Shown: positions 10,872 to 61,831 of the stretch, one piece after another
Numbering within the stretch: the stretch's first letter is position 1
Layout of the letters: each line of letters opens with the position of its first letter
Assembly: GCA_964558555.1 (NCBI GenBank)
Contig: CAZLEO010000002.1
Span: 14,612-78,611, forward strand
Source: an uncultured Rickettsiales bacterium
Lineage (GTDB): Bacteria; Myxococcota_A; UBA796; UBA9615; CAYRNR01
Length of the DNA stretch: 64,000 nt
Direction: 5' to 3'
Program-made: the position numbers and the translations under genes
The notes under the pieces: generated by a model
Database searches by the model: none
The model's input: only the letters and a program-made list of their open reading frames with translations
What the model was told of the DNA's origin: nothing

Positions 10872-12392
10872 ATGGCCAAGTACGACGTGATCGTCATCGG
10901 CGCGGGACTCGGTGGGCTGTCCGCCGCCACCATGATGGCGCACCAGGGGCTGCACGTGCTGCTGCTGGAGCGGCACAACGTGCCCGGCGGCTACGCGACG
11001 AGCTTCGTGCGGGGGCGGTACGAGTTCGAGGTGGCGCTGCACGAGCTGTCGGGGATCGGCCCGCCGGAGAAGCGCGGCGCGCTGTATCGCTACCTCGACG
11101 AGATCGGCGTGGCGCAGCGAGTGGGGTTCCGCCAGACCGAGAACCTGTTCCGGTCGGTCTTCCCGGACCTGGACGTGATCCTGCCGGTGGGCCGCGAGGC
11201 GTACACGGACAAGCTGTGCGAGCTGTTCCCCCACGAGGCGAAGGGCATCCGCAAGTTCCTCGACCGGGTGTTCGCCATGGGCCGGGACTTCGGCCGCATC
11301 GTGCGCGCCCGGGGCCAGGTGGATCCACGGACGGTGGCGCTGAAGTACCGCCACTTCTTCCGCTACGTGCCCACGAAGTGGGGCGACGTGCTCGACCGGG
11401 ACGTGCAGGACCCCATGGCCCGGGCGATGCTGTCGCAGTACTGGGGCTACGTGGGCGCGGGCCCGGCGGAGATCTCGTTTCTGTTCCACGCGGCCACCCT
11501 CGCGGCGTACGTGCTGCGCGGGGCGGCCTTCCCCGAGGGGCGGTCGCAGGCCCTGTCCGCGGGGTTCCTCGAGGCGTTCCGCGCCCACGGCGGCGAGGTT
11601 CGTTTCGGCTGCGGTGCCTCCAAGGTGGTCCTCTCCAACGGCCGCGCGGCAGGGGTGATCACGGACGAGGGCGAGGAGATCGCCTCGAAGTGGGTCGTGT
11701 CCAACGCCGATCCCATCCGCACCTGTCACGATCTGGTGGGCCTGGAGAACGTGCCGGGTAAGTTCCTGCGCAAGCTGCAGTCCTCGGAGGTGGCGCCGTC
11801 CACGGTCAACGTCTACCTGGGCCTGAACCGGACGCTGGAACAGCTCGGCCTGGACGAGCACGAGATCTTCCTGAACTCGGACAGCGACTTCGACCGCCAC
11901 GCCGCGGGAATGCGATCCATCGGCCCCGCCGAGGCCATCGCGGTGACCTCCTACAACGCGGTGTACCCCGAGATCTCTCCGCCCGGCACGTCCATGGTCG
12001 TGCTGACGGCCCTGGCCTACGGCCAGCCGTGGTGCGAGCTGCCGCCGGATCGGTACGTGGACACCAAGAACAAGGTGGCCGACTCGTTGATCCGCTTCGC
12101 CGAGAAGGTGGCGCCCGACCTGCGGGAGTACGCCGAGGTCTGCGAGGTCTCCACCCCCATCACGAACATGCGCTTCGCCGGCGCCACCGGCGGCAGCATC
12201 TACGGTTTCGCGCAGCCGCCGCGCGACAACATGGTCTGGCGCATGGGCAGCCGCGGGCCGGTGGACAACCTGGTCTTCGCCGGCGCCTGGACCCGCCCCG
12301 GCGGCGGGTTCGAGCCCTGCATGATGTCCGGCCGCATGGCCGGGGCGATCGTGGTGGGCAAGCTGGGCGCCGAGAAGGGGGAGGCGAGCTGA
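10872..12392 (+). CDS. NAD(P)/FAD-dependent oxidoreductase, phytoene desaturase (CrtI) family
   Basis: N-terminal dinucleotide-binding motif YDVIVIGAGLGGLSAA...LLLERHNVPGGYA with a CrtI-like overall layout. Start MAKYDV. Confidence 0.7.
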   Translation: MAKYDVIVIGAGLGGLSAATMMAHQGLHVLLLERHNVPGGYATSFVRGRYEFEVALHELSGIGPPEKRGALYRYLDEIGVAQRVGFRQTENLFRSVFPDLDVILPVGREAYTDKLCELFPHEAKGIRKFLDRVFAMGRDFGRIVRARGQVDPRTVALKYRHFFRYVPTKWGDVLDRDVQDPMARAMLSQYWGYVGAGPAEISFLFHAATLAAYVLRGAAFPEGRSQALSAGFLEAFRAHGGEVRFGCGASKVVLSNGRAAGVITDEGEEIASKWVVSNADPIRTCHDLVGLENVPGKFLRKLQSSEVAPSTVNVYLGLNRTLEQLGLDEHEIFLNSDSDFDRHAAGMRSIGPAEAIAVTSYNAVYPEISPPGTSMVVLTALAYGQPWCELPPDRYVDTKNKVADSLIRFAEKVAPDLREYAEVCEVSTPITNMRFAGATGGSIYGFAQPPRDNMVWRMGSRGPVDNLVFAGAWTRPGGGFEPCMMSGRMAGAIVVGKLGAEKGEAS

Positions 12393-17488: not shown

Positions 17489-17739
17489 GCACCCTCCCAG
17501 GGCTTCCTCATCCTCTTCGAGGGTACCACAGCGGCGTCCCATCGCCGCTGCCGAAGCATCCGGGCTCCTAATATGGGGGCGGCTGTTTTCATTTTTCGAC
17601 TGTCCTCCGCGGTGAAAGCTGTTACTGTTTCGTCTGGTTCGAAACCAATACGTAGAACAGCGGACATCAGCAGAGAACCTGCCACGTACACACCGCACAT
17701 CCACAACAGCCGGGGGGCGACCGGGAGGAGAGAAGTACT

Positions 17740-18415: not shown

Positions 18416-19672
18416 CTAGGCGGCGTCCTCTCCCAGCCTCCCGAAGTCCGCCCCCGTCGGGTCCTGGAACACCCTCAGGTCGAACTCCGGCACCGCCGCG
18501 AGCAGGTGGTCGAAGACGTCCGCCTGGATGCCCTCGTACTCCACCCACACCGTGGTCCGGGTGAAGACGTAGATCTGGATCGGCAGGCCGTGCTCGGAGG
18601 GGGCGAGCTGGCGCACCAGGAACGTCATGCCCTCGGTGTGGATGTCGGGGTGGTGTTTCAGGTAGGCCGAGACGTAGGCACGGAAGGTGCCGACGTTGGT
18701 GAGCCGACGGCCGTTGACCTTGAGGGTGTCGTCGACCTTGTGGGTGTCGTTGTACTCGGCGACCTCGGCCTCGACCTGTTCGAGGTACTCGCGGATGAAC
18801 TCGATCTTGTGGAAGCGCTCGAGCATCTCCGGCGTGCAGAACCGGATGGAGCTGACGTCGATGTTGATCGACCGACAGATGCGCCGCCCGCCCGAGTCGG
18901 TCATGCCGCGCCAGTTCTTGAACGAGTCCGAGATCAGCGCGTAGGTGGGGATGGTGGTGATGGTCTTGTCCCAGTTCTGGACCTTGACCGTGGTCAGGGA
19001 GATGTCGATCACCGTTCCGTCGGCGCCGTACTTGGGCAACGCGATCCAGTCGCCGAGGTGGACCATGTTGTTGGCGGTGAGCTGGATGCCGCCCACGAAC
19101 CCCAGGATGGGGTCCTTGAACACCAGCATGAGCACCGCGGTCAGCGCGCCGAGGCCGCCGAGGAAGAACTTGGGCGACTCGCCCATGAGGATGGACAGCA
19201 CGAAGATGCCCACCACGAAGGCGATGATCACCTTGATGACCTGGAAGAACCCGCGGATCGGCACGCGCTGGGCCACGTCGAACGTGCGGTAGATGCCCAG
19301 CACGCCGTTGAGCAGGGCGTCCACCACCAGGAAGCCGACGATCAGCATGTAGATGTTGGCCGCGCCGTGGGTGACCGAGATCAGCCGCTCGTGGCCGGCA
19401 AACGGGATCTCGGCGGCGAGGTAGATGACGATGGACGGCGCGAGGTGGGCCGCGCGGTTGAACAGCCGCTTCTCCAGCAGCTGGTCGTCCCACTTGGTGC
19501 CGGACCTGCGGATGGCCTTGGACACCAGGGTGAGCAGGATCCGCTTGGTGATGATGTTGGCCAGGTAGCTCAGCAGGATGACCAGCACCACGAGGATGGC
19601 GCGGGCGGCCAGGTCGGCGACGCCTTCGGTGGCGCCGAGCTTGGTGAGGTAGGGCACGAGGTAGTCGATCAT
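18416..19672 (-). CDS. Mechanosensitive ion channel, MscS family (YbdG/MscM-like)
   Basis: N-terminal TM helices followed by the conserved MscS beta-domain GDWIALPKYGADGTVIDISLTTVKVQNWDKTITTIPTYALISDSFKNW. Confidence 0.85.
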   Translation of the reverse strand: MIDYLVPYLTKLGATEGVADLAARAILVVLVILLSYLANIITKRILLTLVSKAIRRSGTKWDDQLLEKRLFNRAAHLAPSIVIYLAAEIPFAGHERLISVTHGAANIYMLIVGFLVVDALLNGVLGIYRTFDVAQRVPIRGFFQVIKVIIAFVVGIFVLSILMGESPKFFLGGLGALTAVLMLVFKDPILGFVGGIQLTANNMVHLGDWIALPKYGADGTVIDISLTTVKVQNWDKTITTIPTYALISDSFKNWRGMTDSGGRRICRSINIDVSSIRFCTPEMLERFHKIEFIREYLEQVEAEVAEYNDTHKVDDTLKVNGRRLTNVGTFRAYVSAYLKHHPDIHTEGMTFLVRQLAPSEHGLPIQIYVFTRTTVWVEYEGIQADVFDHLLAAVPEFDLRVFQDPTGADFGRLGEDAA

Positions 19673-19752: not shown

Positions 19753-21123
19753 ATGGGTGACAAGCTCGACGCAGAACGGACGGTCGTCCTGTTCATCGAC
19801 GACGACGCCACCGGGCGCGAGGTGGCCGCGTACCAGCTGCGTCAGGCCGGGTTCGGCGTGGACCTGGCCGCGGACGGCGTCGAAGGGCTGAGCCGGTTCG
19901 ACCCCCACCGGCACGCCGTGGTGGTCACCGATCTGAAGATGCCCAGGATCGGCGGCATGGAGGTGCTGCAGCGGGTGCGAGAGCAGGCGCCCGAGGTGCC
20001 GGTGCTGGTGATCACGGCGTTCGGGTCGCTGGAGGTGGGCGTGGACGCCATGCGCAGCGGCGCCTACGACGTGCTGGCCAAGCCGTTCCAGGCCGATCAA
20101 CTGCAGCTGATCGTGGCTCGTGCCGCCGAGCGGAGCCGCCTGGCGCAGGAGAACCGCCGCCTGAGGCGCCAGCTCAGTGGCGTGGAACGGCCCATCGTGC
20201 ACGCCTCGGGCGCGATGACCGAGCTGATCGCCACCGTGGACCGCGTGGCGCGGTCCGACGCCACGGTGCTGGTCACCGGAGAGAGCGGCACGGGCAAGGA
20301 GCTCGTGGCGCGGCGGCTGCACGCCCGCAGCGGCCGGTCGGAGGGCCCGTTCGTGGCGGTGAACTGCGCGGCCGTCCCCGCCGAGCTGCTGGAGTCGGAG
20401 CTGTTCGGCCACGACAAGGGCGCATTCACCGGCGCCGCGAGGGCGCGCAAGGGGCGGTTCCGCCGGGCCCACGGCGGCACGCTGTTCCTCGACGAGGTGG
20501 GGGCCCTGCCCGCCGACCTGCAGTCCAAGCTGCTGCGCGTGTTGCAGGAGCGGGTGGTGGACGTGGTCGGGCGCGACGAGCCCGTTCAGGTGGACATCCG
20601 CCTCGTGGCCGCCACCAACCGGGACCTGCGCGCGGCCGCGGTGGGCGAGGAGTTCCGCGAGGACCTGTTCTACCGGCTGGCCGTGGTGGAGCTGGAGTTG
20701 CCGCCGCTGCGCGAGCGGCCCGACGACGTCGAGCCGCTGGCCCGGTATTTCATCGCCCAGGCGGCGCGGGACCGTGGCCTGGATGTGCCCGGCGAGGTCG
20801 TCGAGGCCCTGCAGCTGCGGCCGTGGCCCGGCAACGTGCGCGAGCTCGAGAACGCCTGCGAGCGCATGGCCATCCTGGCCCCGGGCGACGAGGTGCGCGT
20901 CGAGGACCTCCCGCCGGTGCGCGGCCAGCGCCCCGCCGACGGGGACACCTGGCTCGACCACCTGCCCGACGGCATCTCCCTGATCGACCTGGAGAAGCAG
21001 GCCATCGAGCACACCCTGCGGCGCTGCAGCGGCAACGTGTCGGCGGCAGCGCGCGCCCTCGGCGTGCCGAGGCACATCCTGGTGTACCGCATCGAGAAGT
21101 ACGGGATACGCGCGGATGGCTGA
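19753..21123 (+). CDS. Sigma-54-dependent Fis-family response regulator (NtrC-type enhancer-binding protein)
   Basis: REC domain (VLFIDDD...VVVTDLKMP). AAA+ sigma-54 activator with Walker A GESGTGKE and GAFTGA (HDKGAFTGA). C-terminal Fis-type HTH. Confidence 0.9.
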   Translation: MGDKLDAERTVVLFIDDDATGREVAAYQLRQAGFGVDLAADGVEGLSRFDPHRHAVVVTDLKMPRIGGMEVLQRVREQAPEVPVLVITAFGSLEVGVDAMRSGAYDVLAKPFQADQLQLIVARAAERSRLAQENRRLRRQLSGVERPIVHASGAMTELIATVDRVARSDATVLVTGESGTGKELVARRLHARSGRSEGPFVAVNCAAVPAELLESELFGHDKGAFTGAARARKGRFRRAHGGTLFLDEVGALPADLQSKLLRVLQERVVDVVGRDEPVQVDIRLVAATNRDLRAAAVGEEFREDLFYRLAVVELELPPLRERPDDVEPLARYFIAQAARDRGLDVPGEVVEALQLRPWPGNVRELENACERMAILAPGDEVRVEDLPPVRGQRPADGDTWLDHLPDGISLIDLEKQAIEHTLRRCSGNVSAAARALGVPRHILVYRIEKYGIRADG

Positions 21124-22237
21124 TCCGGCCCCCCCCAGCCCCTGGCGGCGCCTGTTCGGCTGGCGCATGGTGCTCGGCGTCTGGCTGCCCATCGCCGTGG
21201 TCAGCGCGGTGCACTACGGCACGCCGCCGTGTCACCACTGGGTGCACGACGTGGCGCGGCGGCTGTACTACCTGCCGATCATCCTCGGCGCGTTCTTCGC
21301 CGGCACGCGCGGTGGGGTGGCCGCGGCCGCGGTCGCGTCGGCCGCGTACCTGCCCCACGCGTTCACGCACATCGCCCACATGGATCCTGGGTCGCCGCTG
21401 GAGAAGTTCCTCGAGGTGGTGCTGTACGGGGTCGTGGGGGTGGTGGGTGGCATGCTGGTGGACCGGGAACGGGCGGAGCGCCTTCGCCAGCAAGACCTGG
21501 CCCGCGAGCTCCAGCGCACCCTCGACGACCTCAAGGAGACCGAGCAGCAACTCGTGCGCAGCGGCCGCCTGGGCGCCCTGGGCGAGCTGACGGTGGGGCT
21601 GGCCCACGAGATCAAGAATCCCCTGCACGCCATGCGCGGCACGGCCGAGATCGTGCGCGACGCCGTCGAGGGCGGGAGCGAACAGCGCCGCATGGCCGAC
21701 CTGCATCTGCAGGAGATCGACCGCCTGTCGGGGGTGCTCGAACGCTTCCTCGCCTTTGCCCGGCCGCAGGTCACGCACCACAAGGAGGTGGATCTGGTCG
21801 ACGTGGTGCGCCGGGTCCAGGACCTGACGGCCGCCCAGGCGCGCAAGGCGGATGTGTCCGTGCGCGCGGATCTGCCCGTGGCGCCGCAGCACGTCCTGGG
21901 TGATCCGGAGCAGCTGGTCCAGGTGGCGCTGTCCGTGGTGCTCAACGCGCTGGACGCCCTGCAGGAGCGCCCTGACGATCGCTGGCTGCGCATCGCCCTG
22001 CGCGACGAGCAGCGCGGCTCGAGGACCTACCGCACCGTCGACATCGCCAACGCCGGCCCCGCGATCCCGGACGAGCTGCTCGAGCGCATCTTCGATCCCT
22101 TCGTGACCACCAAGGACGACGGCACCGGCCTCGGCCTCTCCATCGCCGCGCGCATCGTCGACGCGCACGAGGGCCACATCGAGGCCGTCAACCTCGACGA
22201 CGGGGTCAGCTTCAGGATCAGGGTTCCGGCCGCCTGA
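21116..22237 (+). CDS. Membrane sensor histidine kinase, cognate partner of the sigma-54 regulator
   Basis: Start overlaps the regulator stop (ATGGCTGA). N-terminal TM region with a CHHW motif. H-box LAHEIKNPLHAM. HATPase GLGLSIAARIV. Confidence 0.85.
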   Translation: MADPAPPSPWRRLFGWRMVLGVWLPIAVVSAVHYGTPPCHHWVHDVARRLYYLPIILGAFFAGTRGGVAAAAVASAAYLPHAFTHIAHMDPGSPLEKFLEVVLYGVVGVVGGMLVDRERAERLRQQDLARELQRTLDDLKETEQQLVRSGRLGALGELTVGLAHEIKNPLHAMRGTAEIVRDAVEGGSEQRRMADLHLQEIDRLSGVLERFLAFARPQVTHHKEVDLVDVVRRVQDLTAAQARKADVSVRADLPVAPQHVLGDPEQLVQVALSVVLNALDALQERPDDRWLRIALRDEQRGSRTYRTVDIANAGPAIPDELLERIFDPFVTTKDDGTGLGLSIAARIVDAHEGHIEAVNLDDGVSFRIRVPAA

Positions 22238-25200
22238 GGAACCGCTGCGCCCGCCTCCACAGCAGATACAGCGCCGGCAGCACCACCAGCGTCAGCACCA
22301 AGGACGAGACCATGCCCCCCACCATGGGCGCGGCGATGCGCTTCATGACGCGGCTGCCGGCCTCGGTCCCCAGCAGCACCGGGACGAGGCCGAGCACCGT
22401 GGTGGCGACGGTCATGAGCTTGGGCCGCAGGCGCTCCACCGCGCCCTCGACGATGGAGGCGCGCAGGGCGCCGACCGTGTTCAGGCGGCCCTCCCGCTGC
22501 CAGCGGTGAAAGGCCTCGTCCAGGTACACGAGCATGACCACGCCGGTCTCGGCGGCCAGCCCCGCCAGGGCGATGAAGCCGACGCCCACGGCCACCGACA
22601 GGTTGTAGTCGGCGAGCGCCAGCAGCCACACGCCGCCGACGAGGGCGAAGGGCAGCGAGAGCATGACCAGGCCGGACTCGACGATGGACCGGAAGTGGGC
22701 GTACAGCAGCAGGAAGATCAGGCCCAGCGTCAGGGGGATCATCAGCAGCAGGCGGCGGTTGGCGCGCTGCATGTACTCGTACTGGCCCGACCAGGCGACG
22801 GACACGCCGTCGGGCACGTCCACCTCCGCCTCCACGAGGCGACGGGCGTCGCGCACGTAGCCGCCGATGTCGCCGGTGCGCAGATCCACGTAGACCCACG
22901 CGGTCTGGCGGGCGTTCTCGCTCTTGATGGCCGCGGGGCCATCGCTGAGGCCCACGTCGGCCACCTGGCCCAGGGCCACGGCGTGGCCCAGCGGCGTGGG
23001 CACGGCGATGCGCTTCAGCGCCTCGGGATCGTCGCGCAGGTCCCGCGGATAGCGGACGTTGACGGGGTAACGCTCGAGCCCCTCGACGGTCCAGGTGACG
23101 TTCATGCCGCCGATGGCGGAGCGGACCACGTCCTGCACGTCGGCCACGGTCAGGCCGTAGCGGGCGGCCTCGACCCGGTCCACGTCGATGTCGAGGTAGT
23201 GGCCGCCCATGACCCGGTCGGCATACACCGAGTGGGTGTCCGGGTGGGTGCGCAGCGCCCCCTCGATCTGCTCGGCGACGTCGGCGAGCTGCTGCAGGTC
23301 GTCGCCCATGATCTTCACGCCCACCGGCGTCTTGATGCCCGTTGCGAGCATGTCGATGCGCGTGCGGATGGGCATGGTCCAGGAGTTGGTGAGGCCGGGG
23401 AACTGCACCATCTGATCCAGCTCGGCGATGACGTCCTCGATGGTCTTGCCATCGGGCCACTGCTCCGTGGGGGTGAGCAGGATCGTGGTCTCGAGCATGG
23501 ACAGTGGAGCAGGGTCGGTGGCGGTCTCGGCGCGTCCAGCCTTGCCCAGCACGTGGGCCACCTGGGGGTGGCTGGCGATGATGCGGTCCGTGCGCTGGAG
23601 CACCTCGCGGGCCTCGGCGATGCTGATGCCCGGCGGGGTGGTGGGCATGTACAGCAGGTCGCCCTCGTTGAGCGGGGGCATGAACTCGGTGCCCAGGCGG
23701 GCGGCGGGCCAGGCCGTGGCGAGGGTCAACGCGACGGCGACCAGGACGGTGAGGACGGGGAAGCGCAGCGCGGCGCGCAGGACGGGTCGGTACAGGGCGA
23801 TGGAGGCGCGGGTGATCGGGTGGCGACCCTCGGGGCGGATGCGGCCGCGCACGAGGTAGACCATCAACACCGGCACCACCGTGACCGCGAGCACGGCCGA
23901 CGCGGCCATGGCGAACGTCTTGGTCCACGCCAGGGGCGTGAACAGGCGCCCCTCCTGCTGTTGCAGCGTGAACACGGGCAGGAAGCTCACGGTGATGATC
24001 AGCAGCGAGAAGAACAGGGCCGGCCCCACCTCGCGGGCCGACCGCTGGACCAGCTGGATGTGTGGGAGATCCGGGGTTCGCTCCCGGTGCTTGTGGAGGT
24101 TCTCGACCATCACCACCGAGGCGTCCACCATGACCCCCACGGCGATGGCGATGCCCCCCAGGCTCATGATGTTGGCGTTGATGCCCAGGATGCGCATCAC
24201 CAGCAGCGCCGCGAGCACGCCCGTGGGGATGGTCAGCACGGCCACCAGGGACGACCGCAGGTGCAGCAGGAACAGCGCGATCACCAGCGCCACCACCAGC
24301 ATCTCCAGCAGCAGCTTGGCGGTGAGGTTGTCGATGGCGCGGTGGATCAGCGTCGAGCGGTCGTACGAGGTGTGGACCACCACCCCCTCGGGCAGGCCCT
24401 CGGCGAGCTCGTCCAGGCGCCGCTCGACGCGCTCGATCACCCGCAGGGCGTTCTCTCCGGAACGCATCACGACGATGCCCGAGACCACCTCCCCCTGACC
24501 GTTCATCTCCACCAGCCCGCGGCGCAGCTCCGGGCCGAGGTGTACATGGGCGATCTGCTGCAACAGGACCGGCGTGTGCCGGACCGGATCGATGCCCACG
24601 GGCACGATTTGAAGGTCCTCGATGGACCGCAGGTACCCCTGGCTGCGGACCATGAACTCGGTCTCGGCGATCTCCACCAAGCGGCCGCCGGTGTCGCCGT
24701 TGGATCGCTGGATGGCGCGCTTGACCTGGGCCAGGCTCACCCCGTGGGCCCGCATCTTCTCGGGGTCGACCTCCACCTGATACTGGCGCACGAAGCCGCC
24801 CACGGACGCCACCTCGGACACGCCGTCGAGGGCGGTGAGCTCGTAGCGCAGGTACCAGTCCTGGATCGAGCGCAGCTCGGAGAGGTCGTGGCGGTCGCTG
24901 GTCAGGGTGTACTGGTAGATCCAGCCGACGCCGGTGGCGTCCGGCCCGAGGCGGGGGTTCGCACCCTCGGGGAGCCGGTCTGCGGCCGCGTCGAGCGCCT
25001 CGGCCACGCGGGAGCGGGCCCAGTACTGGTCCGTGCCGTCCTCGAAGATCACGTAGACCATGGACAGCCCGAAGAACGAGTACCCGCGCACGTTGCGGGC
25101 GTAGGGCACCGACAGCAGGGCCGTGGCCACGGGGTAGGTGACCTGGTCCTCCACCACCTGGGGCGCCTGGCCGGGGTGGTCGGTTACCACGATGACCTGC

Positions 25201-25346
25201 ACGTCGGACAGGTCGGGGATGGCGTCCACGGGGGTGGTCAGCAGGGCCCACACGCCGCCGGCGATGAGCATCAGCAGCCCGATCAGCACCATCACGCGGT
25301 TGCGGATGCTGGCGTCGATGATGCTGGCGACGAGGCCGCGTTCCAC
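22218..25346 (-). CDS. CusA/CzcA-family heavy-metal efflux RND transporter, inner-membrane pump
   Basis: 1042 aa with 12-TM RND architecture, typical of the HME-RND family. The 3' end overlaps the kinase gene end by 20 nt, convergent. Confidence 0.9.
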   Translation of the reverse strand: MERGLVASIIDASIRNRVMVLIGLLMLIAGGVWALLTTPVDAIPDLSDVQVIVVTDHPGQAPQVVEDQVTYPVATALLSVPYARNVRGYSFFGLSMVYVIFEDGTDQYWARSRVAEALDAAADRLPEGANPRLGPDATGVGWIYQYTLTSDRHDLSELRSIQDWYLRYELTALDGVSEVASVGGFVRQYQVEVDPEKMRAHGVSLAQVKRAIQRSNGDTGGRLVEIAETEFMVRSQGYLRSIEDLQIVPVGIDPVRHTPVLLQQIAHVHLGPELRRGLVEMNGQGEVVSGIVVMRSGENALRVIERVERRLDELAEGLPEGVVVHTSYDRSTLIHRAIDNLTAKLLLEMLVVALVIALFLLHLRSSLVAVLTIPTGVLAALLVMRILGINANIMSLGGIAIAVGVMVDASVVMVENLHKHRERTPDLPHIQLVQRSAREVGPALFFSLLIITVSFLPVFTLQQQEGRLFTPLAWTKTFAMAASAVLAVTVVPVLMVYLVRGRIRPEGRHPITRASIALYRPVLRAALRFPVLTVLVAVALTLATAWPAARLGTEFMPPLNEGDLLYMPTTPPGISIAEAREVLQRTDRIIASHPQVAHVLGKAGRAETATDPAPLSMLETTILLTPTEQWPDGKTIEDVIAELDQMVQFPGLTNSWTMPIRTRIDMLATGIKTPVGVKIMGDDLQQLADVAEQIEGALRTHPDTHSVYADRVMGGHYLDIDVDRVEAARYGLTVADVQDVVRSAIGGMNVTWTVEGLERYPVNVRYPRDLRDDPEALKRIAVPTPLGHAVALGQVADVGLSDGPAAIKSENARQTAWVYVDLRTGDIGGYVRDARRLVEAEVDVPDGVSVAWSGQYEYMQRANRRLLLMIPLTLGLIFLLLYAHFRSIVESGLVMLSLPFALVGGVWLLALADYNLSVAVGVGFIALAGLAAETGVVMLVYLDEAFHRWQREGRLNTVGALRASIVEGAVERLRPKLMTVATTVLGLVPVLLGTEAGSRVMKRIAAPMVGGMVSSLVLTLVVLPALYLLWRRAQRFLRRPEP

Positions 25347-25356
25347 CGGGTCCTCC

Positions 25357-26568
25357 TCAGTGATCGTGGCCGCGCCGGGACAGCAGGTCGGCGGTGGACT
25401 GGCGCAGCTGGCTCTCCGAGTCGAGCAGGAACTGGCCGGACAGGACGATCTCCTGGCCCTCGTCGAGGCCCGCGAGGATCTCGGTCTCGCCGTTGCCCAC
25501 CAGGCCGGGGATCACATCCACGGCGCGGAACAGGCCGTCGCCCTCGGACACGTAGACCGAGTTGCTGTCGCCGGATCGCAGGATGGCCTCGGTGGGGACC
25601 TTGAGCACCCCCTCGCGGCCCTGCACCCGCAGGGTCACCGTGGCGAACATGCCGGGTCGCAGGGCCAGGTCCGGGTTGTCGAAGGTCAGGCGCACGCGGA
25701 GCGTGCGGGTGCGCTCGTCCAGGGTCGGGTAGAGGTAGTCCACGGTGCCGAGGTAGCGCACGCCCGGGGCGTGGCTGGGTTCGAGCGTCGCGGACTGCCC
25801 CTCGGCGACCCACGGCGCGTCGAACTCGTAGACGTCGGCGAGCACCCAGATGCGGTCCAGGTCGCCGATGTGGAACAGGTCGGCGCCCGCCTTCACGGCC
25901 GAGCCCTCCACCACGTCCTTGTGCAGTACGTGGCCGGCGGCGGGGGCGTACACGGCCACGGCGCGGGAGGCCTGGCCGGCCGCGGCGACGGCGTCGATCT
26001 GGCCGGCGCCCAGGCCCAGGTGCTCCAGCCGCGCCCGGGCGGACCGCGTCAGGGCGGCGTCCTCACCCGACGTGCGGCGGGCCAGCAGGTACTCCTCCTG
26101 GGCAGAGACCAGCTCGGGGCTGTACACGTCCAGCAGGGGCTGGCCGCGGCGTACCTCGTCGCCGGTGCGCGACACGTGCAGGCGCTCGACCCAGCCGTCG
26201 AAGCGCAGGTTGACCGCGTGCAGCTCGTCTTCGGCCACGGCGATCTCGCCGACGGTGCGCACGCCCCGGTCCAGGTCGCCGCGCGTGACCGCGCCCAGCC
26301 GCACACCCATGTTCTGCACCACGCCGGCGTCGAGCTGGAGCTCGGTGACCGCGCCGTCCATGGGCTTCATGGGCGTCAGATCCATCTTGCAGATGGGACA
26401 GAGGCCGGGCCCCTCCTGGATGACGTTGGGGTGCATGCCGCAGGTGTGGAGATCCTCGGCCGGGCCGGCCTCGTGGGCATGGCCGTCGGCCTGGGGAGCG
26501 TCTCCTTCCACATCGAGGAATCCGCAGCCGCTCAGCAGCAGCAACACGACGGTGATCCAGGCTCTCAT
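25357..26568 (-). CDS. CusB/CzcB-family efflux RND periplasmic adaptor with N-terminal heavy-metal-binding domain
   Basis: Lipoprotein signal LLLLSGCG. N-terminal CGMHP...CPICKMDL metal-binding module. A membrane-fusion-protein beta-barrel/lipoyl region follows. RBS GAGGAGG. Confidence 0.85.
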   Translation of the reverse strand: MRAWITVVLLLLSGCGFLDVEGDAPQADGHAHEAGPAEDLHTCGMHPNVIQEGPGLCPICKMDLTPMKPMDGAVTELQLDAGVVQNMGVRLGAVTRGDLDRGVRTVGEIAVAEDELHAVNLRFDGWVERLHVSRTGDEVRRGQPLLDVYSPELVSAQEEYLLARRTSGEDAALTRSARARLEHLGLGAGQIDAVAAAGQASRAVAVYAPAAGHVLHKDVVEGSAVKAGADLFHIGDLDRIWVLADVYEFDAPWVAEGQSATLEPSHAPGVRYLGTVDYLYPTLDERTRTLRVRLTFDNPDLALRPGMFATVTLRVQGREGVLKVPTEAILRSGDSNSVYVSEGDGLFRAVDVIPGLVGNGETEILAGLDEGQEIVLSGQFLLDSESQLRQSTADLLSRRGHDH

Positions 26569-27830
26569 CGGTCCTCCTCGTCGAACACCACACCGCACAG
26601 CCGCTGCACCTCCACCTGGGCGAGGTGGACGTCCACGCCGGAGACGACGGCGTCGCGCTGCATGGCGAGCACCCGCTCCCACGCCTGCACGAGGGTGGGG
26701 AACGCCGCGCGGTCCACCTGATAGGCGGCCAGGGTGGCCTCCCACGTGGCGCGCGCGCCGGGGACCAGGTCCTCGCGGTGGCGCCGCTCTCGATCCGCGG
26801 CGCGTTCCCAGCGGGCCAGGGCAGCGTCGAGCTCCCCCTGCACCCCGGCGCGGGCCGAGTCGAGCTGGTCTGCGGCGGCTCGTGAACGGGCCTCGTGCTC
26901 GGCGGCGCGCGCGCCCCAGCGGCTCTTCGCCGCGGTGGGTAGCGGAATCGCGATCCCCAGCGACGCCTGGTTCATCCCCTCGTCCATGCCGTCGATGGGG
27001 GCGCGGACGCGGTAGCCGGCCCAGACGGTGAGGTCGGGGTGGGCCTCCTGCCGCGCCGCGTCGGCGGCCCGCTGCTCGGCGTCGGCCGCCGCGGCCCCGC
27101 CGCCCAGGGTCGGGCTCTCGCGCAGGGCCGTCTCCAGCAAGGGATCGCGGCGCGGGACCGGCGGCAGGGGAGCGAGGTCGCCGGGGGTGACGACCTCGAG
27201 CGTCCCGTCCAGCTGGACTGCCGCGGCCAGCCCGGCGAGCACCTCGCGTTCGGCGCGGCCGTGGTCCTCGGCCACCTCGTTCAGGTGATCGCGACCCAGC
27301 TGCGCCGAGAGCAGCTGGTACTGCTCGGCGCGTCCCACCTCGTAGCCCGCGCGGACCGCCTCGACGAGCTGTCCGGCCAGGTCCACCTGCTCGTGGGCCA
27401 GGGCGCCGAGCTGGCGGTGCAGGGTGAGGTTCCAGTAGCCGCGACGCACGGCCGCGGCCAGGTCCACCTGCGCTGCGCGCAGCGCCTCGTCGGCCACCTC
27501 AGCTTGCGCCTCGGCGGCGGATCTGCGGTGGGTGAGGGTCCCCGGAGCCAGCAGGGACTGACGCACGGACAGCTGCACGCCGCTCATGGGGTGCACGCCG
27601 GGGTAGGGGGCGGTCACCGGCATGTTGGAGTACTCCAGGCCCAGCAGCGGCTCGGGGCCGGCGCCGGCCTGGGTGATGCGGTGATCCACGGCCGCTGCCT
27701 GCGCCTCGAGGCTCGACAGGGTGGCGTTCGCCTGCAGCGCCGCGCGGACGAGGTCGTCGGGACCCTCCGCGGCGGTCGCGGGTATCGTGGTCGCCGCCAG
27801 GAGGGCGAGCGTGGCCAGGGCGCGGATCAT
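26565..27830 (-). CDS. TolC/CzcC-family outer-membrane efflux protein
   Basis: Signal peptide followed by two OEP coiled-coil/barrel repeats. Its stop overlaps the adaptor start (ATGA). Confidence 0.8.
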   Translation of the reverse strand: MIRALATLALLAATTIPATAAEGPDDLVRAALQANATLSSLEAQAAAVDHRITQAGAGPEPLLGLEYSNMPVTAPYPGVHPMSGVQLSVRQSLLAPGTLTHRRSAAEAQAEVADEALRAAQVDLAAAVRRGYWNLTLHRQLGALAHEQVDLAGQLVEAVRAGYEVGRAEQYQLLSAQLGRDHLNEVAEDHGRAEREVLAGLAAAVQLDGTLEVVTPGDLAPLPPVPRRDPLLETALRESPTLGGGAAAADAEQRAADAARQEAHPDLTVWAGYRVRAPIDGMDEGMNQASLGIAIPLPTAAKSRWGARAAEHEARSRAAADQLDSARAGVQGELDAALARWERAADRERRHREDLVPGARATWEATLAAYQVDRAAFPTLVQAWERVLAMQRDAVVSGVDVHLAQVEVQRLCGVVFDEEDR

Positions 27831-27838
27831 CGACTCGA

Positions 27839-28273
27839 TCAGCCCTCGGCCGGTCTGGCGATGAAGGACTGCGGGTCGGCCTCGAACCTGCCCTGGCAGC
27901 CGGGGCAGCAGTAGCCGTAGTACTTGCCGTCCACCACCGAGAACACGGTCTTGTCCGTGACCAGGAAGGCCTCCCCGCTGACGGGACAGATGCCCTTGGC
28001 GCCGATGTCCGGCTTGCCGCCCCAGGACTTCACGGCGCCCTCCGGGTCCACCTTGGCCATGCCCTCCATCTCCATGGCGGCCTCGCCTGCGGTGGCCTCT
28101 TCGGCCGTGGCGGCGTGGTCGGCCTGCGCGTGTCCCTCGTGGTCCACGTGGGAGTGGGCGGCGTGGTCGTGGTCGTGGGCGTGCTCGTCAGCGGTGCCAC
28201 CACACGCGGCGATGTTCAGGGCGGCCAGCAGGCCGAGGGTCAGGGTCGAGAGGGTGACGGTCGACTTGATCAT
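27839..28273 (-). CDS. His-rich periplasmic metal-binding lipoprotein with YHS domain (probable Cu/heavy-metal chaperone)
   Basis: Signal peptide plus lipobox LNIAACGG. His-rich stretch [26 protein letters not shown] motif ICPVSGE...[14 protein letters not shown]. First gene of the efflux operon. Confidence 0.8.
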
Positions 28274-28304
28274 GGGGGTACCTCCGGTTCGTCGCCGACG
28301 GACG

Positions 28305-28321
28305 TTGCAGGAGGCTTGCCA
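28305..28321 (-). promoter_or_regulatory. Candidate sigma-54 (-24/-12) promoter for the YHS-czcCBA operon
   Basis: The minus strand reads TGGCAAGCCTCCTGCAA, against consensus TGGCAC-N5-TTGCW. GG and GC are correctly spaced, with 2 mismatches. The predicted TSS lies ~20 nt upstream of the start codon. A sigma-54 activator gene is nearby. Confidence 0.5.
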
Positions 28322-28409
28322 GAAACGCGGGATTCGAAAAAGTGCTTTGAAAACAGCCGGATACCGGGACCGCCGTGGGGGCGTGCGGTGGCGATCCGGG
28401 CCCGAGTGC

Positions 28410-28441
28410 ACAATAGTCTGCAACCCGCTGGAGACTATTGT
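28410..28441. promoter_or_regulatory. Perfect 10-bp inverted repeat (ACAATAGTCT-N12-AGACTATTGT) in the nadA upstream region; candidate operator
   Basis: Direct reading. An AT-richer element in a GC-rich intergenic region ~85 nt upstream of the nadA start. Function unknown. Confidence 0.4.
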
Positions 28442-28526
28442 TCATCTTGCCCGCGCCCGCGCGGGGCTTGGACACCCCGGGCAACCGTGCTATGTGAGCA
28501 CCCGACGCAACCGCGGAGGTCCAGCC

Positions 28527-29600: not shown

Positions 29601-29735
29601 CTCCCTGAAATCTCGGCAGTTGCATAGTCCATCGATTTCGTGGAATTAGTTAGAGCTAACGTATATATGTATATTCTTATATTTGACTATGCGTGATCGA
29701 GTGGGTAGGGTTTCCTCGAATCCTGGAGGAACTCG
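29601..29735. promoter_or_regulatory. AT-rich (~35-40% GC) intergenic island upstream of the arsR-psr operon; it contains TTGACT (-35-like) and short inverted repeats that may be an ArsR operator
   Basis: cgatttcgtggaattagttagagctaacgtatatatgtatattcttatatttgactatgcg. This is the lowest-GC stretch in the window. GTTAG-AG-CTAAC is a short inverted repeat. Confidence 0.5.
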
Positions 29736-30074
29736 ATGCCACCCAAGATCGACCTCGACCCCCAGCTCTTCGAGATACAGGCGGAGTTCTGCCGGATGAT
29801 GGGCAACCGCAACCGGCTGATGATCCTCCACGCCCTGCGCGAAGGAGAGATGTGCGTGTCCGATCTCACCGAGATCCTGGGCGTCTCGCAGCCGGTGGTC
29901 TCCCAGCACCTGGCAGTGCTGCGCAAGCTCGGCGTGGTCCTCATGCGCCGGGACGGCCAGCACGTCTTCTACAGCCTGTCCGACCCCAACATCTCCAGCG
30001 CGTGCGACATGATCCGCGCCATCCTGCAGCGCACCGTGCAGGCGCGCTCGGAGGTCCTGGGAGGGAACTCCTGA
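29736..30074 (+). CDS. ArsR/SmtB-family metalloregulator or redox-sensing transcriptional repressor
   Basis: Winged-HTH with the RLMILHAL...LGVSQPVVSQHLAVLRKLGVV signature. Cys at EMCVSDL (compare the ArsR ELCVCDL metalloid site) plus a C-terminal Cys89. The stop overlaps the start of the molybdoenzyme gene (TGATG). Confidence 0.85.
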   Translation: MPPKIDLDPQLFEIQAEFCRMMGNRNRLMILHALREGEMCVSDLTEILGVSQPVVSQHLAVLRKLGVVLMRRDGQHVFYSLSDPNISSACDMIRAILQRTVQARSEVLGGNS

Positions 30075-32323
30075 TGGCACCCGTCAGCCGAAGGCAATTC
30101 ATCAAGATCGGGGCCGCGTCGTCGGCCGGAGTCGCCGCGGGAGCGGCCCTGGCGCCGTCCTTGCTACGGCCCCGCCGGGCCCTGGCCGCGCACGATCCCA
30201 CGCCCGACGACGTCCAGATCAGGCACAGCTACTGTGAGATGTGCTTCTGGAAGTGCGCGGTGCGGGCGTACGTGTCCGGTGACCGCATCTGGAAGCTCGA
30301 GGGCAACCCCGCCGATCCGTTGACCCGAGGGCGGCTGTGCCCCCGCGGCACCGGCGGGATCGGCACCTACACGGATCGCGATCGTCTGCGCACCCCCCTG
30401 ATCCGCACCGAACAGCGGGGCAAGCAGGTGTTCCGCGAGGCGAGCTGGGACGAGGCGCTGGGGTACATCGCCGACAAGCTCGACCACGTGAAGAAGACGT
30501 GGGGCCCGTCGAGCGCTGCGCTCTTCTACCACGGCTCTGGCGGCGCCTACCTCAAGGAGCTGATGAAGGCCTACGGCTCGGCCAACGTGGCCGCGCCCAG
30601 CTACGCCCAGTGCCGGGGCCCGCGCGAGGCCGCGTTCCAGGTGACCTACGGCCGGGGGGTCGGCTCGCCCGAGAACACCGACATCGCCAACACCCGCTGC
30701 CTCGTGCTCATCGGCAGTCACCTCGGCGAGAACATGCACAACTCCCAGGTGCAGGAGTTCTCCCGGGCCATCGACCGCGGCGCGGACATCATCGTGGTGG
30801 ACCCGCGCTTCTCCACCGCCGCGGGCAAGGCCAGGCACTGGCTGCCCATCCGTCCGGCCACGGACGTGGCGCTGTTGCTGGCGTGGATCCACGTGATCAT
30901 CGAAGAGGAGCTGTACGACGAGCAGTACGTGGAGCGGTACACCTACGGCTTCGACCAGCTGCGGGCGGCCGTGGCCAGCAACACCCCGGAGTGGGCCTGG
31001 CCCATCACCGGCATCGAGCCGGCACAGATCCGCGAGACCGCCCGCGCCATGGGCCGCGCCGCCCCGGCCACGCTGGTGCACCCGGGCCGTCACGTCACCT
31101 GGTACGGCGACGACACCCAGCGGTCCCGCGCCGTGGCCATCCTCAACGCGCTGCTGGGCTCGTGGGGGCGTCGCGGCGGGTTCTACGAGCCGGCCAGGGC
31201 CCGGATCCCCAAGTACCCGTACGCTGACACCGAGGCCCCCGAGCACACCTGGCGCACGACCCTGGGGGGCCGGTACCCCATGGCGAACCTGGCCCTGGCC
31301 CACGAGCTGGCCGACGCGTCCACGCCGCGGCCCGTCGACGCCCCCGACACCAAGGCCTGGATCGTGTACGGCACCAACCTGTCGCTGACCCTGCCGGACT
31401 TCGGCAGCATCCAGGAGAGGATCCGCGATCTGGAGCTGCTGGCGGTGGTGGACATCCTGCCGTCCGAGATCACCGGCTGGGCCGACGTGGTGCTGCCGGA
31501 GGCCGGCTACCTCGAGCGCGGTGACGACCTGAGGCTGTCGCCGTACAAGTCCCCGTCCATCGCGCTGCGCGATCCGGTGGTTCCCCCGGTGGGCGACTCC
31601 AGGCCGGGCTGGTGGATCACCAAGCAGCTCGCCGAGAAGATGGGGCTGGGCGACCACTTCCCCTGGAACGACCTCGACGAGTACCTGCGAGCCCGCCTCG
31701 ACGGCACCGGGATCACCCTGGAGCAGCTGCGCGCCGAGGGTGTCGTGCGGCTCCCCGACCAGCCCATCTACTGGGACGAGGGCCTGGCACCGGCCTTTGC
31801 CACGCCCAGCGGCAAGATCGAGCTGTACTCGACCGCCCTGGCCGAGGCGGGCTTCGACCCCGTCCCCACCTACACCCACCACGAGCAACCCCCGCCGGGC
31901 TCGTTCCGGCTGCTGTACGGCCGCTCGCCGGTCCACACCTTCGGCCGCACCACCAACAACCCGCTGCTGCTGGAGGTGGAGGACACCAACGTGGTGTGGA
32001 TCAACGCCGACGCGGCCGCCGACCTCGGCATCGAGTACGGAGACTGGGTGACGCTGACCAACCAGGACGGGGTCACCTCCAACCGCGCCCGCGCCAAGGT
32101 CACCCAGGGCATCCGCGCCGACGCCGTGTACGTGGTCCACGGCTTCGGCCACACCAGCAAGTCGATGCGGGCGTCGTACCTCAAGGGAATCGACGACGCC
32201 GGCCTGATCACGCGGTTCAGCCGCGACCCGATCATGGGCGGCACCGGCATGCGGGGGAACTTCGTGACCGTGACCAAGGTGGACGGGCCGGCACCCGGCG
32301 CGCACGGGGAGGAGGTGGCCTGA
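30074..32323 (+). CDS. Molybdopterin oxidoreductase catalytic subunit, PsrA/PhsA-type (polysulfide/thiosulfate reductase-like), Tat-exported
   Basis: Twin-arginine signal SRRQFIKIGAASSAGVAAGAALA. N-terminal [4Fe-4S] motif CEMCFWKC...C (C-x2-C-x3-C-xn-C). 749 aa, typical of PsrA/PhsA rather than ArrA or TtrA. MGD-binding domain layout. Confidence 0.8.
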   Translation: MAPVSRRQFIKIGAASSAGVAAGAALAPSLLRPRRALAAHDPTPDDVQIRHSYCEMCFWKCAVRAYVSGDRIWKLEGNPADPLTRGRLCPRGTGGIGTYTDRDRLRTPLIRTEQRGKQVFREASWDEALGYIADKLDHVKKTWGPSSAALFYHGSGGAYLKELMKAYGSANVAAPSYAQCRGPREAAFQVTYGRGVGSPENTDIANTRCLVLIGSHLGENMHNSQVQEFSRAIDRGADIIVVDPRFSTAAGKARHWLPIRPATDVALLLAWIHVIIEEELYDEQYVERYTYGFDQLRAAVASNTPEWAWPITGIEPAQIRETARAMGRAAPATLVHPGRHVTWYGDDTQRSRAVAILNALLGSWGRRGGFYEPARARIPKYPYADTEAPEHTWRTTLGGRYPMANLALAHELADASTPRPVDAPDTKAWIVYGTNLSLTLPDFGSIQERIRDLELLAVVDILPSEITGWADVVLPEAGYLERGDDLRLSPYKSPSIALRDPVVPPVGDSRPGWWITKQLAEKMGLGDHFPWNDLDEYLRARLDGTGITLEQLRAEGVVRLPDQPIYWDEGLAPAFATPSGKIELYSTALAEAGFDPVPTYTHHEQPPPGSFRLLYGRSPVHTFGRTTNNPLLLEVEDTNVVWINADAAADLGIEYGDWVTLTNQDGVTSNRARAKVTQGIRADAVYVVHGFGHTSKSMRASYLKGIDDAGLITRFSRDPIMGGTGMRGNFVTVTKVDGPAPGAHGEEVA

Positions 32324-39852: not shown

Positions 39853-39959
39853 GACTCCTCCGGGTGTTCCGGTGGGAGGAAGCTGCAATCGCTGTGCCAT
39901 CGAAGATCTGCTGCGTTGGGGCGGCGGATGCGGTACATCTCCGTCGAAGAGGAGGGCAC

Positions 39960-48400: not shown

Positions 48401-48606
48401 TCCTCGATCACTACATGACCATGGACCGTCGCGACGAGCGCACCGACGTCTTCGCGTCGCTGCTCCGCGAGGGCATCCACACCCTTCGCTACGAGGTCCA
48501 GGCCACCACCCCGGGCGAGTTCGTCGCCCCTCCGACGCGGGCCGAGGAGATGTACCACCCCGAGACCTTTGGGCGGAGCGCGACGGATCGGGTGATGGTG
48601 GAGTGA
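42439..48606 (+). CDS. Alpha-2-macroglobulin-family giant protein (2055 aa) with candidate thioester motif CSEQ
   Basis: Signal peptide MRRAIAIALLVLVPVGALG. Thioester-domain-like RYVPSCSEQVASRIL (compare the A2M PYGCGEQ motif). C-terminal signature GEFVAPPTRAEEMYHPETFGRS. The size and layout resemble bacterial A2M/YfhM-like proteins. Confidence 0.7.
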   Translation: MRRAIAIALLVLVPVGALGPVPVTAAPPEIREETIVTREEGVSPDEKYGEVASWYEPLGGLGMVLREIQIDPSSEAGASATVHPLSEERARELLQRADPIDTGETVPEPFAVRQGPRPRSQEAERIVLAADSHRSASVPEVERGTDVLEVVRYAPEGDAGRPFQVSIVFSQPMVALSAVEGTDADGFARIEPEMPGRWQWLGNRTLVFEPEGDFTPATTFDVTVPAGTRSASGGALAEALEFGFETAPIGVLYTTLEDVLQRLQPVVFVAFDRKVDREQILAQMRLEGGISRRLRLLTDEENDEVGDQYVDWFDERYGAGSWLAVRPAEPLEPNTGYSFVLGDGAGGAEQERFEPSSFPFRTYGPLRLTGHGCDSGWSSDDLTEECDGSDRWVAEFANPLERDQGSAISVTPADPEMTVETGWKGVEVRGVREAGVRYTVTIPPGLKDVHGQTLGEAVQLEFTFDSVRDRSTAQLFLPGTAMVVADPTAPPCYEFSSTDLESVRVRIHRSDDPAGDLTAWVEDYLATYDPEEPEHPRPGTLVSDEVHTLAGDEGERVETRIDLQPYLIDGHGQFILWFEPGRALGGFHFSSRRSVWVQVTDIGLTALESGGELLVWATGLTDGAPLQDVDLQLLPAGTSHSRTDAEGLARLEMSTNAEDQRWVLALRGPDKALLDSGDPVSLYESAKSWRASTWDGRSYRWYIDDPRGLYRPGETARVKGWIRDVEQSAAGFDPWAAAPPPTLDWRLYEPSWRAVHEPYSTVVIAEGTTAVDELGGFDIAADLPDDVSHGYAHLEVSVPGEPETSTADRRHAFEVEEYRKPRFTVGISPSHDTSMAGEELVFDIRTTLLTGGGLAGAELSGYVDASVASFRPPGHDEFRFGPWTPWWSGSVRGGFGGRYFYDGIADGRGEYRLGVEFASSNPPRPWLVGGAVYARDQARQRWTAYSDPVLVHPAELYVGLRSASSLVRAGEPFDVEALVVDLRGEVVHDADVRMTLVQQKGWSVVDGHHVMEEADVGECSLIAGAASRSCRFEVDEAGRYRVVARIADAANRPNQTDLYLWIAEADDDGGGTGRWSRLAVEGLELVPGTQDVQPGDTLELLVRSPVYPSTGLLTTSIHGIVLRTELFRMDGPTATLRIPIVEAHVPLVQIGVFVVAAEGGGSAGGPGRAEPRWPSSRKAAVNLSVPPLDRALEVSVEPDAADLQPGDETPLRVRVADSSGAPVQGAQVTLAVVDEAILQLSDHEWLDPLWFFYEPAYGHWLDYRHQFVGPYPGVWTGRDLRNTVLLATPPQGQADGPGNAEQTLRGTGRHPRYRPWDWVAGDPFSNMSRDIPPGVPRPIPSRKDFGPLALFEPAVLTDADGRAVVPLHAPGSLTRYRITALAATRDQFGLAESSITARRPLMVRPSPPRFLNVGDRCELPLLVENRTDLSLNVELAVQALNADLGNDDGYSSDPVGRELVLPPRTQVEVRIPVASRLPGQARFQVVASSDDFTDAVVFDVPVWTPAAAEEVAVYGTLEAGAVAVPVRAPPDVWTEAGGLQVDLYASRLQGLADAGHYLERYVPSCSEQVASRILAQLALGDTFGPTGDGSATQRRDRRRAIEADLFLLEGRQSHDGGFYTWHSSRRASPFVSVHVIHALVLARTAGFQIRDEVMDEADVYLGGLAANLDEGYPVDAARSIRAYALYVRHLMGDDDVDAARTLVAEADDGQLPLEAQGWLLRVLAAGGTEADTVPLERSIAASVTETAAGAHFVTSYGPGDPLLLHSDHRADAVILAALLEVGSHDDLVAKLAHELLANRSDGHWTNTLETALAVVALARYAEVHESRRPRVDAEVWLGDAYAGRHSFRTRDAPPSRIHVPMDHLANLDGGRDLVLSRKGRGPLYYRVGLDYVPRSPDLPALDRGFVLQRHYQAVDDPDDVWRDDQGAWHIRAGARVEVVVTVQVSDERHHVSIVDPLPAGLEFASDTVAGNQFLSDSADLHAPGWHAFLDHYMTMDRRDERTDVFASLLREGIHTLRYEVQATTPGEFVAPPTRAEEMYHPETFGRSATDRVMVE

Positions 48607-61557: not shown

Positions 61558-61597
61558 CGAATACCTCGATTCTTCGCCTCGACGCCGGGCAGTCTAT

Positions 61598-61612
61598 GCA
61601 GATTCGGTGCCA
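61598..61612 (-). promoter_or_regulatory. Candidate sigma-54 promoter upstream of korA
   Basis: The minus strand reads TGGCACCGAATCTGC: a perfect -24 TGGCAC, and CTGC at -12 (1 mismatch to TTGC), with correct GG-N10-GC spacing. It lies ~40 nt upstream of the korA start. Confidence 0.5.
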
Positions 61613-61815: not shown

Positions 61816-61831
61816 TGGTACGGACCTTGCT
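61816..61831 (+). promoter_or_regulatory. Candidate sigma-54 promoter upstream of the erythrin-like gene pair
   Basis: TGGTACGGACCTTGCT against TGGCAC-N5-TTGCW: 1 mismatch, perfect -12, correct spacing. About 60 nt upstream of ATG 61894. Confidence 0.5.

Follow-up and report, generated by a model that had tools for sequence, protein, structure and literature searches.

When the genes of a two-component system end against those of a metal-efflux operon, does the one control the other, and through which promoter? The question is raised by a locus lying within a 64-kb stretch of DNA from an uncultured bacterium (contig CAZLEO010000002.1; the whole stretch is referred to here as the window). The window's GC content of 70% and its nearest named relatives suggest, as no more than a guess, an origin in the Myxococcota. 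The locus is made up of two convergent units: a gene for an NtrC-type enhancer-binding protein (EBP) and one for a membrane histidine kinase on the forward strand, and four tightly packed efflux genes on the reverse strand. We consider it likely that the two units form a self-contained metal-stress module, in which a dedicated sigma-54 two-component system switches on the adjacent efflux operon. An earlier reading of the sequence alone (the original prediction) had already proposed such a unit, and it is supported by the linkage, by a −24/−12 site and by an activator site, all kept across rearranged loci from several phyla. These comparisons made use of 168 loci taken from genome and metagenome collections, among the matches listed; 104 of them encode the sensor domain of the kinase. 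Individual loci are designated below by L numbers.

Organization of the locus

All six genes named in the original prediction were found where it had placed them:

19753..21123, + strand: NtrC-type EBP/response regulator, 456 residues; Pfam REC, Sigma54_activat, AAA_lid_14 and HTH_8
21116..22237, + strand: histidine kinase, 373 residues; HisKA and HATPase_c
22218..25346, − strand: CusA-like heavy-metal resistance-nodulation-division (RND) pump, 1042 residues; TIGR00914, 1168 bits
25357..26568, − strand: CusB-like periplasmic adaptor (membrane fusion protein, MFP), a lipoprotein with an N-terminal heavy-metal-binding domain (HMBD); Pfam HlyD_D23 (E 9e-74), HlyD_D4 (CusB hairpin) and HMBD
26565..27830, − strand: outer-membrane factor (OMF) of the TolC/CusC class; Pfam OEP, E 2.7e-24
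27839..28273, − strand: small lipoprotein, first gene of the operon, 144 residues; lipobox IAAC, a His-rich stretch and a YHS/TRASH-like C-terminal Cys motif ("CPVSG...")

The kinase gene overlaps the EBP gene by 8 nt and the OMF and adaptor genes share 4 nt (ATGA), while the 3′ ends of the pump and kinase genes overlap by 20 nt. On the far side of the operon, the nadA gene is divergent from the lipoprotein gene and starts at 28527, which leaves a control region of 253 bp.

The EBP has the domains of the NtrC class: a REC domain, an AAA+ domain (Sigma54_activat, E 5e-69) with both a GAFTGA loop, found within "GHDKGAFTGAARA" of the translation, and a Walker A motif (GESGTGKE), and a C-terminal HTH_8. 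It falls under every NCBIfam equivalog cutoff (AtoC, 433 bits against 714; ZraR, 352 against 760). The metal-binding domain that had been claimed for the N-terminus of the adaptor is recognized by Pfam as an HMBD, with 30 bits over a cutoff of 23.6, at "CGMHP...CPICKM"; the top NCBIfam match of this protein is CusB, at 163 bits against a cutoff of 390. The C-terminus of the small lipoprotein shows the Cys pattern of YHS and TRASH domains and scores below the Pfam cutoffs for both (20.0 bits for a cutoff of 30.3 and 21.9 for a cutoff of 27, respectively). Matches are equally weak in the L085 orthologue. Homologues of the lipoprotein gene occupy the first place of the operon in both L081 and L085.

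Control region of the efflux operon

The 253-bp region contains the following elements:

28306..28321, − strand: sigma-54 −24/−12 element TGGCAAGCCTCCTGCA, with the 12-nt GG-to-GC spacing of TGGCAC-N5-TTGCW; 34 nt separate it from the ATG
28281..28285, − strand: GGAGG, the ribosome-binding site, with 7 nt between it and the ATG (28273)
28332..28355, − strand: T-rich tract TGTTTTCAAAGCACTTTTTCGAAT, separating the activator sites from −24; a possible bend
28407..28422, − strand: proximal predicted activator site TGCAGACTATTGTGCA, 16 bp; matrix score 21.9 bits; identical in L081
28429..28444, − strand: distal predicted activator site TGAACAATAGTCTCCA, 16 bp; matrix score 21.9 bits; kept in L081 and L084

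The original prediction of a −24/−12 element followed by a short leader with a ribosome-binding site was thus confirmed: the GG and GC dinucleotides are in the canonical register, six of the eight flanking consensus positions are matched, and transcription is predicted to start about 11-12 nt past the GC, giving a leader of about 22 nt that includes the GGAGG. The pattern TGGCA-N7-TGCW occurs four times in the window for 0.64 occurrences expected by chance, a figure that by simple arithmetic comes to about 0.001 for this intergenic region and this strand. No sigma-70-like promoter was found between 19500 and 28700. A chance origin of the match was ruled out because the −24/−12 site is conserved across loci. 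It is kept in L081, with equivalents in L084, L085, L086, L088, L004 and others. Altogether, 18 loci (about 15 when redundancy is removed) have a site scoring at least 6/8 no more than 800 nt ahead of the first pump gene; the background is 0.05 sites per kb-strand, which corresponds to about 0.04 for each locus. Where the distance reaches 400-500 nt, the gap is filled by a gene for a small YHS or HMBD lipoprotein. The T-rich tract has a counterpart at the matching place in L081; the idea of a site for integration host factor within it was dropped since no convincing match to WATCAANNNNTTR could be seen.

The original prediction had also suggested looking for inverted repeats 80-150 bp upstream of the promoter. 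Two such repeats, the predicted activator sites, are present 86-123 bp upstream of 28321; their centres are 22 bp apart and precede the −24 GG by 95 and 117 bp. Both are unchanged in L081 despite the divergence of the surrounding sequence. In 20 other loci, related sites of the type TGnnGAATATTCnnCA (consensus TGTAGAATATTCTACA), single or paired, lie at similar distances upstream of −24. A weight matrix was built from 33 sites of other loci, excluding those of the window and of L081/L082, and used to scan the window. The two sites ranked first and second, at 21.9 bits each; the runner-up scored 13.25 bits and the maximum over 50 shuffles was 15.6. In family loci outside the training set, the density of hits reaching 17 bits or more is 34.9 per Mb, as compared to 3.8 per Mb in control loci (described below), a 9-fold enrichment. 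The core of the site co-varies with the helix-turn-helix of the EBP, "NVS" pairing with ACTATT/AATAGT cores and "NQx" with GAATATTC; this pattern follows phylogeny and is suggestive. The 80 bp that precede the EBP gene yielded neither a sigma-54 nor an activator site. The matrix detects no further activator site in the window, so there is no sign of autoregulation or of a second local target.

Some further −24/−12-like sites were recorded in the window. One, TGGCACCGAATCTGCA (61597-61612, − strand), is a good match and has its end 40 nt before the start codon (ATG at 61557) of a gene for pyruvate/2-oxoacid:ferredoxin oxidoreductase (59809-61557, − strand); it is overlapped on the opposite strand by an open reading frame (61596-62915, + strand) with a rubrerythrin-like C-terminal region. 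Two others, TGGCACAGCGATTGCA (39884-39899, − strand) and TGGCAGGTTCTCTGCT (17669-17684, − strand), are surrounded by open reading frames with no Pfam match.

Identity of the pump

The original prediction had labelled the efflux operon "Czc". Pumps of the CzcA type, which handle Zn, Co and Cd, carry the signature DFG..DGA..VEN in transmembrane helix 4. This signature is missing here: helix 4 reads "AVGVMVDASVVMVEN" (AVG..DAS..VEN), matching "AVGAMVDAAIVMIEN" of CusA. Compared with proteins in the PDB, the pump scores 1199 bits against CusA of E. coli and 556 against ZneA, which is CzcA-like. The residues that align with the methionine triad of CusA (M573, M623 and M672) and with D405 are all kept. 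The score, the triad with D405 and helix 4 together make the operon Cus-like, that is, of the monovalent Cu/Ag type, and the Czc label was given up. By its sequence, the pump is a CusA-type (Cu/Ag) member of the heavy-metal efflux (HME) RND family. CusF is missing from the operon, the first place being held by the YHS-like lipoprotein.

Linkage in related loci

To evaluate the association between kinase and pump, loci of at least 15 kb were compared to a control set of loci with other NtrB-like kinases. These came from the matches listed in a profile scan with the full-length kinase alignment, which picked up generic HisKA patterns and gave mostly unrelated kinases. An HME-RND pump or adaptor gene was found within 10 kb in 25 of 43 sensor-family loci and in none of the 39 controls. 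An Nramp gene was found within the same distance in four family loci and, again, in no control.

The order of the genes varies. The convergent arrangement of the window recurs in L081. The EBP and kinase genes precede those for OMF, MFP and RND pump on a single strand in L084, L085, L086 and L088, and follow them in L004, L099, L104, L109 and L122. In L084, whose kinase is 73% identical to that of the window, the operon is inverted and has carried along its promoter and upstream sites, now found directly after the kinase stop codon. Between this promoter and the OMF gene of L084 lies a 20-codon open reading frame, MIKHATRMAPIAAADQPAEG (11298-11360, + strand). Since it keeps three residues from the start of the lipoprotein and four from its end, it looks like the decayed remnant of the YHS lipoprotein gene.

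Where family loci have no RND pump, the pair formed by activator site and sigma-54 site precedes other metal-related genes: an HMBD lipoprotein gene in L112, a YHS-activator-kinase operon in L114 and, in L006 and L156, the gene for an HMA protein followed by those for an FtrD-like protein and a MacB-type ATP-binding cassette (ABC) exporter. In L097 (~11100-11600, − strand) and L103 (~11090-11640, − strand) the pair is followed by a single gene, whose product is a secreted YHS-domain protein with a long C-terminal tail of CGC/CxC repeats, metallothionein-like; the gene is convergent with that of the kinase, as in the window. In L087 the pair is found 7 kb from the kinase gene, before genes for an FtrD-like protein, a MacB-type ABC exporter and an OMF. 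What these predicted outputs share is a small Cys/His metal-binding protein that is secreted, accompanied by an exporter in some cases and not in others. In one branch, an Nramp gene adjoins the kinase gene (L087, 11330-12637; L001, L002, L093 and L123), often together with a gene for a universal stress protein. Contigs that carry the sensor family are labelled Myxococcota, Desulfuromonadales, Acidobacteriota, Planctomycetota, Candidatus Eisenbacteria, Candidatus Methylomirabilis and, in one case, a Desulfosporosinus; locus L026 is from the cultured Desulfosporosinus hippei DSM 8344.

The sensor domain of the kinase

The part of the kinase expected to receive the signal is its N-terminus:

21116..21478, + strand: sensor domain, a 120-residue N-terminal membrane domain

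It is followed by a coiled coil running directly into the HisKA and HATPase_c domains; no HAMP, PAS or periplasmic domain was found with Pfam. Matches to solved kinases start only at about residues 121-143, the best being ZraS (9jfj, E 1e-28), and no solved relative of the sensor domain was found. The DUF4118 family (KdpD-type) matches residues 50-124 weakly (17.4 bits for a cutoff of 28.4, E 0.004), and weak precomputed matches to it exist in many relatives. A search of 5.8 billion proteins returned many full-length relatives of the kinase, 360-400 residues long. With the N-terminal 121 residues as query, 755 matches at E ≤0.001, 192 of them at E ≤1e-10, were obtained among 1.84 billion cluster representatives. 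The full-length matches listed are mostly 340-400 residues long and carry the domain at their N-terminus; many other matches look like fragments.

Conservation was counted over 80 distinct sensor sequences. Three positions are the same in every one (P54, E100 and G112) and several others nearly so: H33, H44 and P80 (79/80 each), R49 (78/80), H81 (77/80), Y78 (76/80) and D45 (73/80). Residues 81-90 of the window's kinase form a His/Met-rich loop, HAFTHIAHMD, and most relatives also have His there. The original prediction had pointed to a CHHW motif in the membrane region as a possible metal ligand. The motif exists, at residues 39-42, in the loop that follows the first hydrophobic helix and not inside the helix. 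Its role as a ligand did not hold up: C39 is confined to the closest relatives, positions 40-42 vary too, and the residues most often found at position 39 among the 80 sequences are H (18), S (11) and D (10). The conservation suggests as candidate ligands H33, H44, D45, H81, the 81-90 loop and E100.

Two membrane topologies can be drawn for the domain. The three long helices of the AlphaFold model imply three spans with the N-terminus outside. Four segments and an inside N-terminus would agree with the hydropathy profile, the positive charges that precede helix 1, the conserved GxRGG (63-67) and the weak DUF4118 match. The loop formed by residues 81-93 is predicted to face the periplasm under both topologies.

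We tentatively propose, at somewhat less than an even chance, that this domain, with its invariant H33, H44, H81 and E100 and near-invariant D45, is a previously undescribed metal-binding module defining a family of sigma-54-coupled kinases. No published description of the kinase family or of the GAATATTC operator was found in the literature searched, which excludes most subscription journals.

A model for induction

The most probable reading, control of the adjacent operon by the two-component system, can be laid out as follows. The kinase would detect a metal signal by way of the conserved His, Asp and Glu residues of its compact sensor, autophosphorylate at H164 and pass the phosphate to the REC domain of the EBP, a partnership to which the adjacency and overlap of the two genes point. 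Activated EBP would then bind the two 16-bp sites (28444..28407) and form an AAA+ ring. By looping of the DNA the ring would reach the sigma-54 RNA polymerase at 28321..28306 and use ATP for promoter opening. The resulting single transcript would yield a periplasmic His/Cys metal-binding lipoprotein together with a CusCBA-type tripartite pump, exporting the metal across the envelope. Judging from the cargo genes, Cu(I) or Ag(I) is the most likely signal.

Neighbouring genes

A gene for an MscS-type mechanosensitive channel (18416-19672, − strand) is divergent from the EBP gene, 80 bp apart. The arrangement is kept in L081, L082 and one JGI relative and is absent from more distant loci. Downstream from nadA lies a molybdopterin oxidoreductase gene (29693-32323, + strand), preceded in the syntenic L081 and L082 by a gene for a small ArsR-type (HTH_5) regulator; this region could be another metal- or metalloid-related unit. 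Farther away, a bacterial alpha-2-macroglobulin gene (42439-48606, + strand) encodes a protein of 2055 residues with MG2, MG3, bait-region, A2M and MG10 domains.

Alternative explanations

A kinase with almost no extracytoplasmic mass recalls the intramembrane-sensing kinases, and its core is closest to that of ZraS. The system could therefore be a general sensor of envelope or membrane stress (membrane perturbation, redox, pH) of whose output metal genes are only a part, as has been argued for ZraSR. The variety of outputs from locus to locus (RND pumps, MacB-type exporters, small proteins alone) and the mscS-like gene that, in the window and in the closest relatives, is divergent from the EBP gene would both fit. 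Nonetheless, a metal pump or a Cys/His metal-binding protein makes up, or stands at the start of, each identified output, and the conserved polar residues of the sensor are His, Asp and Glu, typical metal ligands. Furthermore, the lack of any other matrix site in the window fits a narrow regulon, at least locally. We thus regard a general stress sensor as unlikely.

The small size of the sensor domain would equally suit a kinase that does not sense metal directly and reads instead an accessory protein, either the YHS/HMBD lipoprotein or the pump, in the manner of BceS-BceAB or CpxA-CpxP. Indeed, no member of the regulon is more constant from locus to locus than a small metal-binding protein of the periplasm. 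However, the fold of this protein changes (YHS, HMBD, HMA) while the invariant residues of the sensor stay fixed, and L084 has its YHS gene reduced to the 20-codon remnant with promoter, activator sites and kinase intact. This indirect route seems decidedly improbable.

Finally, it is scarcely credible that the adjacency is coincidental, with another activator (e.g., one like Nla28) serving the promoter and the two-component system controlling other genes: although the two units converge and are not co-transcribed, EBPs are numerous in high-GC deltaproteobacterial genomes, and a predicted sigma-54 promoter at MXAN_0989 (cusA/cusB) is listed as an Nla28 target (PMC9765219), the pump is linked to the family and to no control, an inversion of the operon took promoter and activator sites along and left them next to the kinase, the motif is enriched in family loci and its core co-varies with the HTH, and the activator site is unlike the Nla28 half-sites (PMC9765219).

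Against control of the efflux operon by the adjacent two-component system stand several observations. About 40% of the long family loci have no pump within 10 kb, so that adjacency is common and not universal. The locus counts exaggerate the number of independent events because the loci are phylogenetically related and some are near-duplicates. Nor is the matrix fully independent, since the activator sites were first recognized by eye from the motif in the window, though no sites of the window's clade were used in building it. No −24/−12 site is detectable in L009, L010 and L013, and no sigma-54 or activator site is detectable between the kinase and Nramp genes of the Nramp sub-branch. Four low-GC loci (L145, L150, L152 and L155) have TGGCAC at −24 and no GC at −12. 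In the sensor, the three-span and four-segment topologies are at odds. The sequence cannot reveal metal specificity, and the organism is uncultured and known from contigs only, its regulation being read from the DNA.

In the four low-GC loci, GTGTA, TTTGA or ATGAA takes the place of TTGCW (L145, ~15373; L150, ~12318; L152, ~12586; L155, ~9047), and GAATATTC activator sites are still present upstream.

Relation to known systems

The original prediction had likened the locus to the CorSR system of Myxococcus xanthus, with a distinct sensor, and the comparison proved apt on both counts. CorSR is a copper-responsive system with a sigma-54-dependent activator, whose targets are a multicopper oxidase and CopA, a P-type ATPase (PMC3707914). 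Both systems pair a histidine kinase with an activator of the REC-AAA+-HTH_8 type, the domain set of CorR being identical to that of the EBP; both involve sigma-54 promoters of envelope metal-resistance genes and have the regulators in the same cluster. Besides a signal peptide and one further transmembrane segment, CorS possesses a sensor domain located in the periplasm as well as a HAMP domain (PMC3707914); signal peptide, periplasmic domain and HAMP are all missing from the kinase described here. In addition, the target here is an RND operon in place of a multicopper oxidase and a P-type ATPase, and the regulator genes, which for CorSR lie within the operon under their control, form a separate, convergent unit. 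Given the kinase without HAMP or periplasmic domain and the RND target, the locus was not classed as a CorSR system.

ZraSR (HydHG) of E. coli and Salmonella is likewise a sigma-54-dependent two-component system responding to metal or envelope stress; the core of ZraS is the closest solved relative of the kinase, and JGI annotations label members of the kinase family "HydH". ZraS, however, uses a periplasmic sensor domain, and the targets here are a Cus-type pump and a YHS protein, not zraP. Membership was rejected on the NCBIfam scores as well: ZraS reaches 149 bits against a cutoff of 479, over kinase residues 133-371 only, and the ZraR score of the EBP, given above, also falls short.

The cargo resembles CusCFBA of E. 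coli in that pump, adaptor and OMF are of the Cus type and the methionine triad and proton-relay Asp of CusA are kept; it differs by the lack of CusF, the YHS-like lipoprotein in first place and the HMBD of the adaptor. In E. coli, CusRS acts through an OmpR-type regulator, CusR, at a sigma-70 promoter, as opposed to the sigma-54 promoter and NtrC-type EBP of the window. Kinases of the PmrB/ColS type sense metal via a very short periplasmic loop with acidic or His ligands. They belong to another family, with OmpR-type partners, a HAMP domain and ExxE motifs, and no sequence relationship to them was seen in the searches made here. Sigma-54 control of Cus pumps in the group of M. xanthus is not new as an idea since a sigma-54 promoter has been predicted upstream of M. 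xanthus cusBA, a target of the starvation regulator Nla28 (PMC9765219). The paper on the sigma-54 regulome of D. vulgaris makes no mention of metal efflux.

Significance

To our knowledge, few metal-responsive two-component systems work through sigma-54 (ZraSR and CorSR), and both have a periplasmic sensing domain. Here, the output logic of ZraSR and CorSR appears coupled to a compact, membrane-embedded sensor for which no solved or described relative was found. No established concept is overturned by this finding. Practical gains would lie in the annotation of metal-resistance regulons in metagenomes and in a defined set of residues for the study of metal binding; as a small, portable sensor-promoter pair, the system may also lend itself to use as a biosensor. 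The kinase family is widespread in uncultured bacteria from soil, sediment and marine environments, and its operator, promoter and targets can be read from genomes. Should the sensor prove to be an undescribed metal-binding module, the operator TGnnGAATATTCnnCA and the regulon, a small Cys/His periplasmic protein and an exporter, would be predictable from sequence alone.

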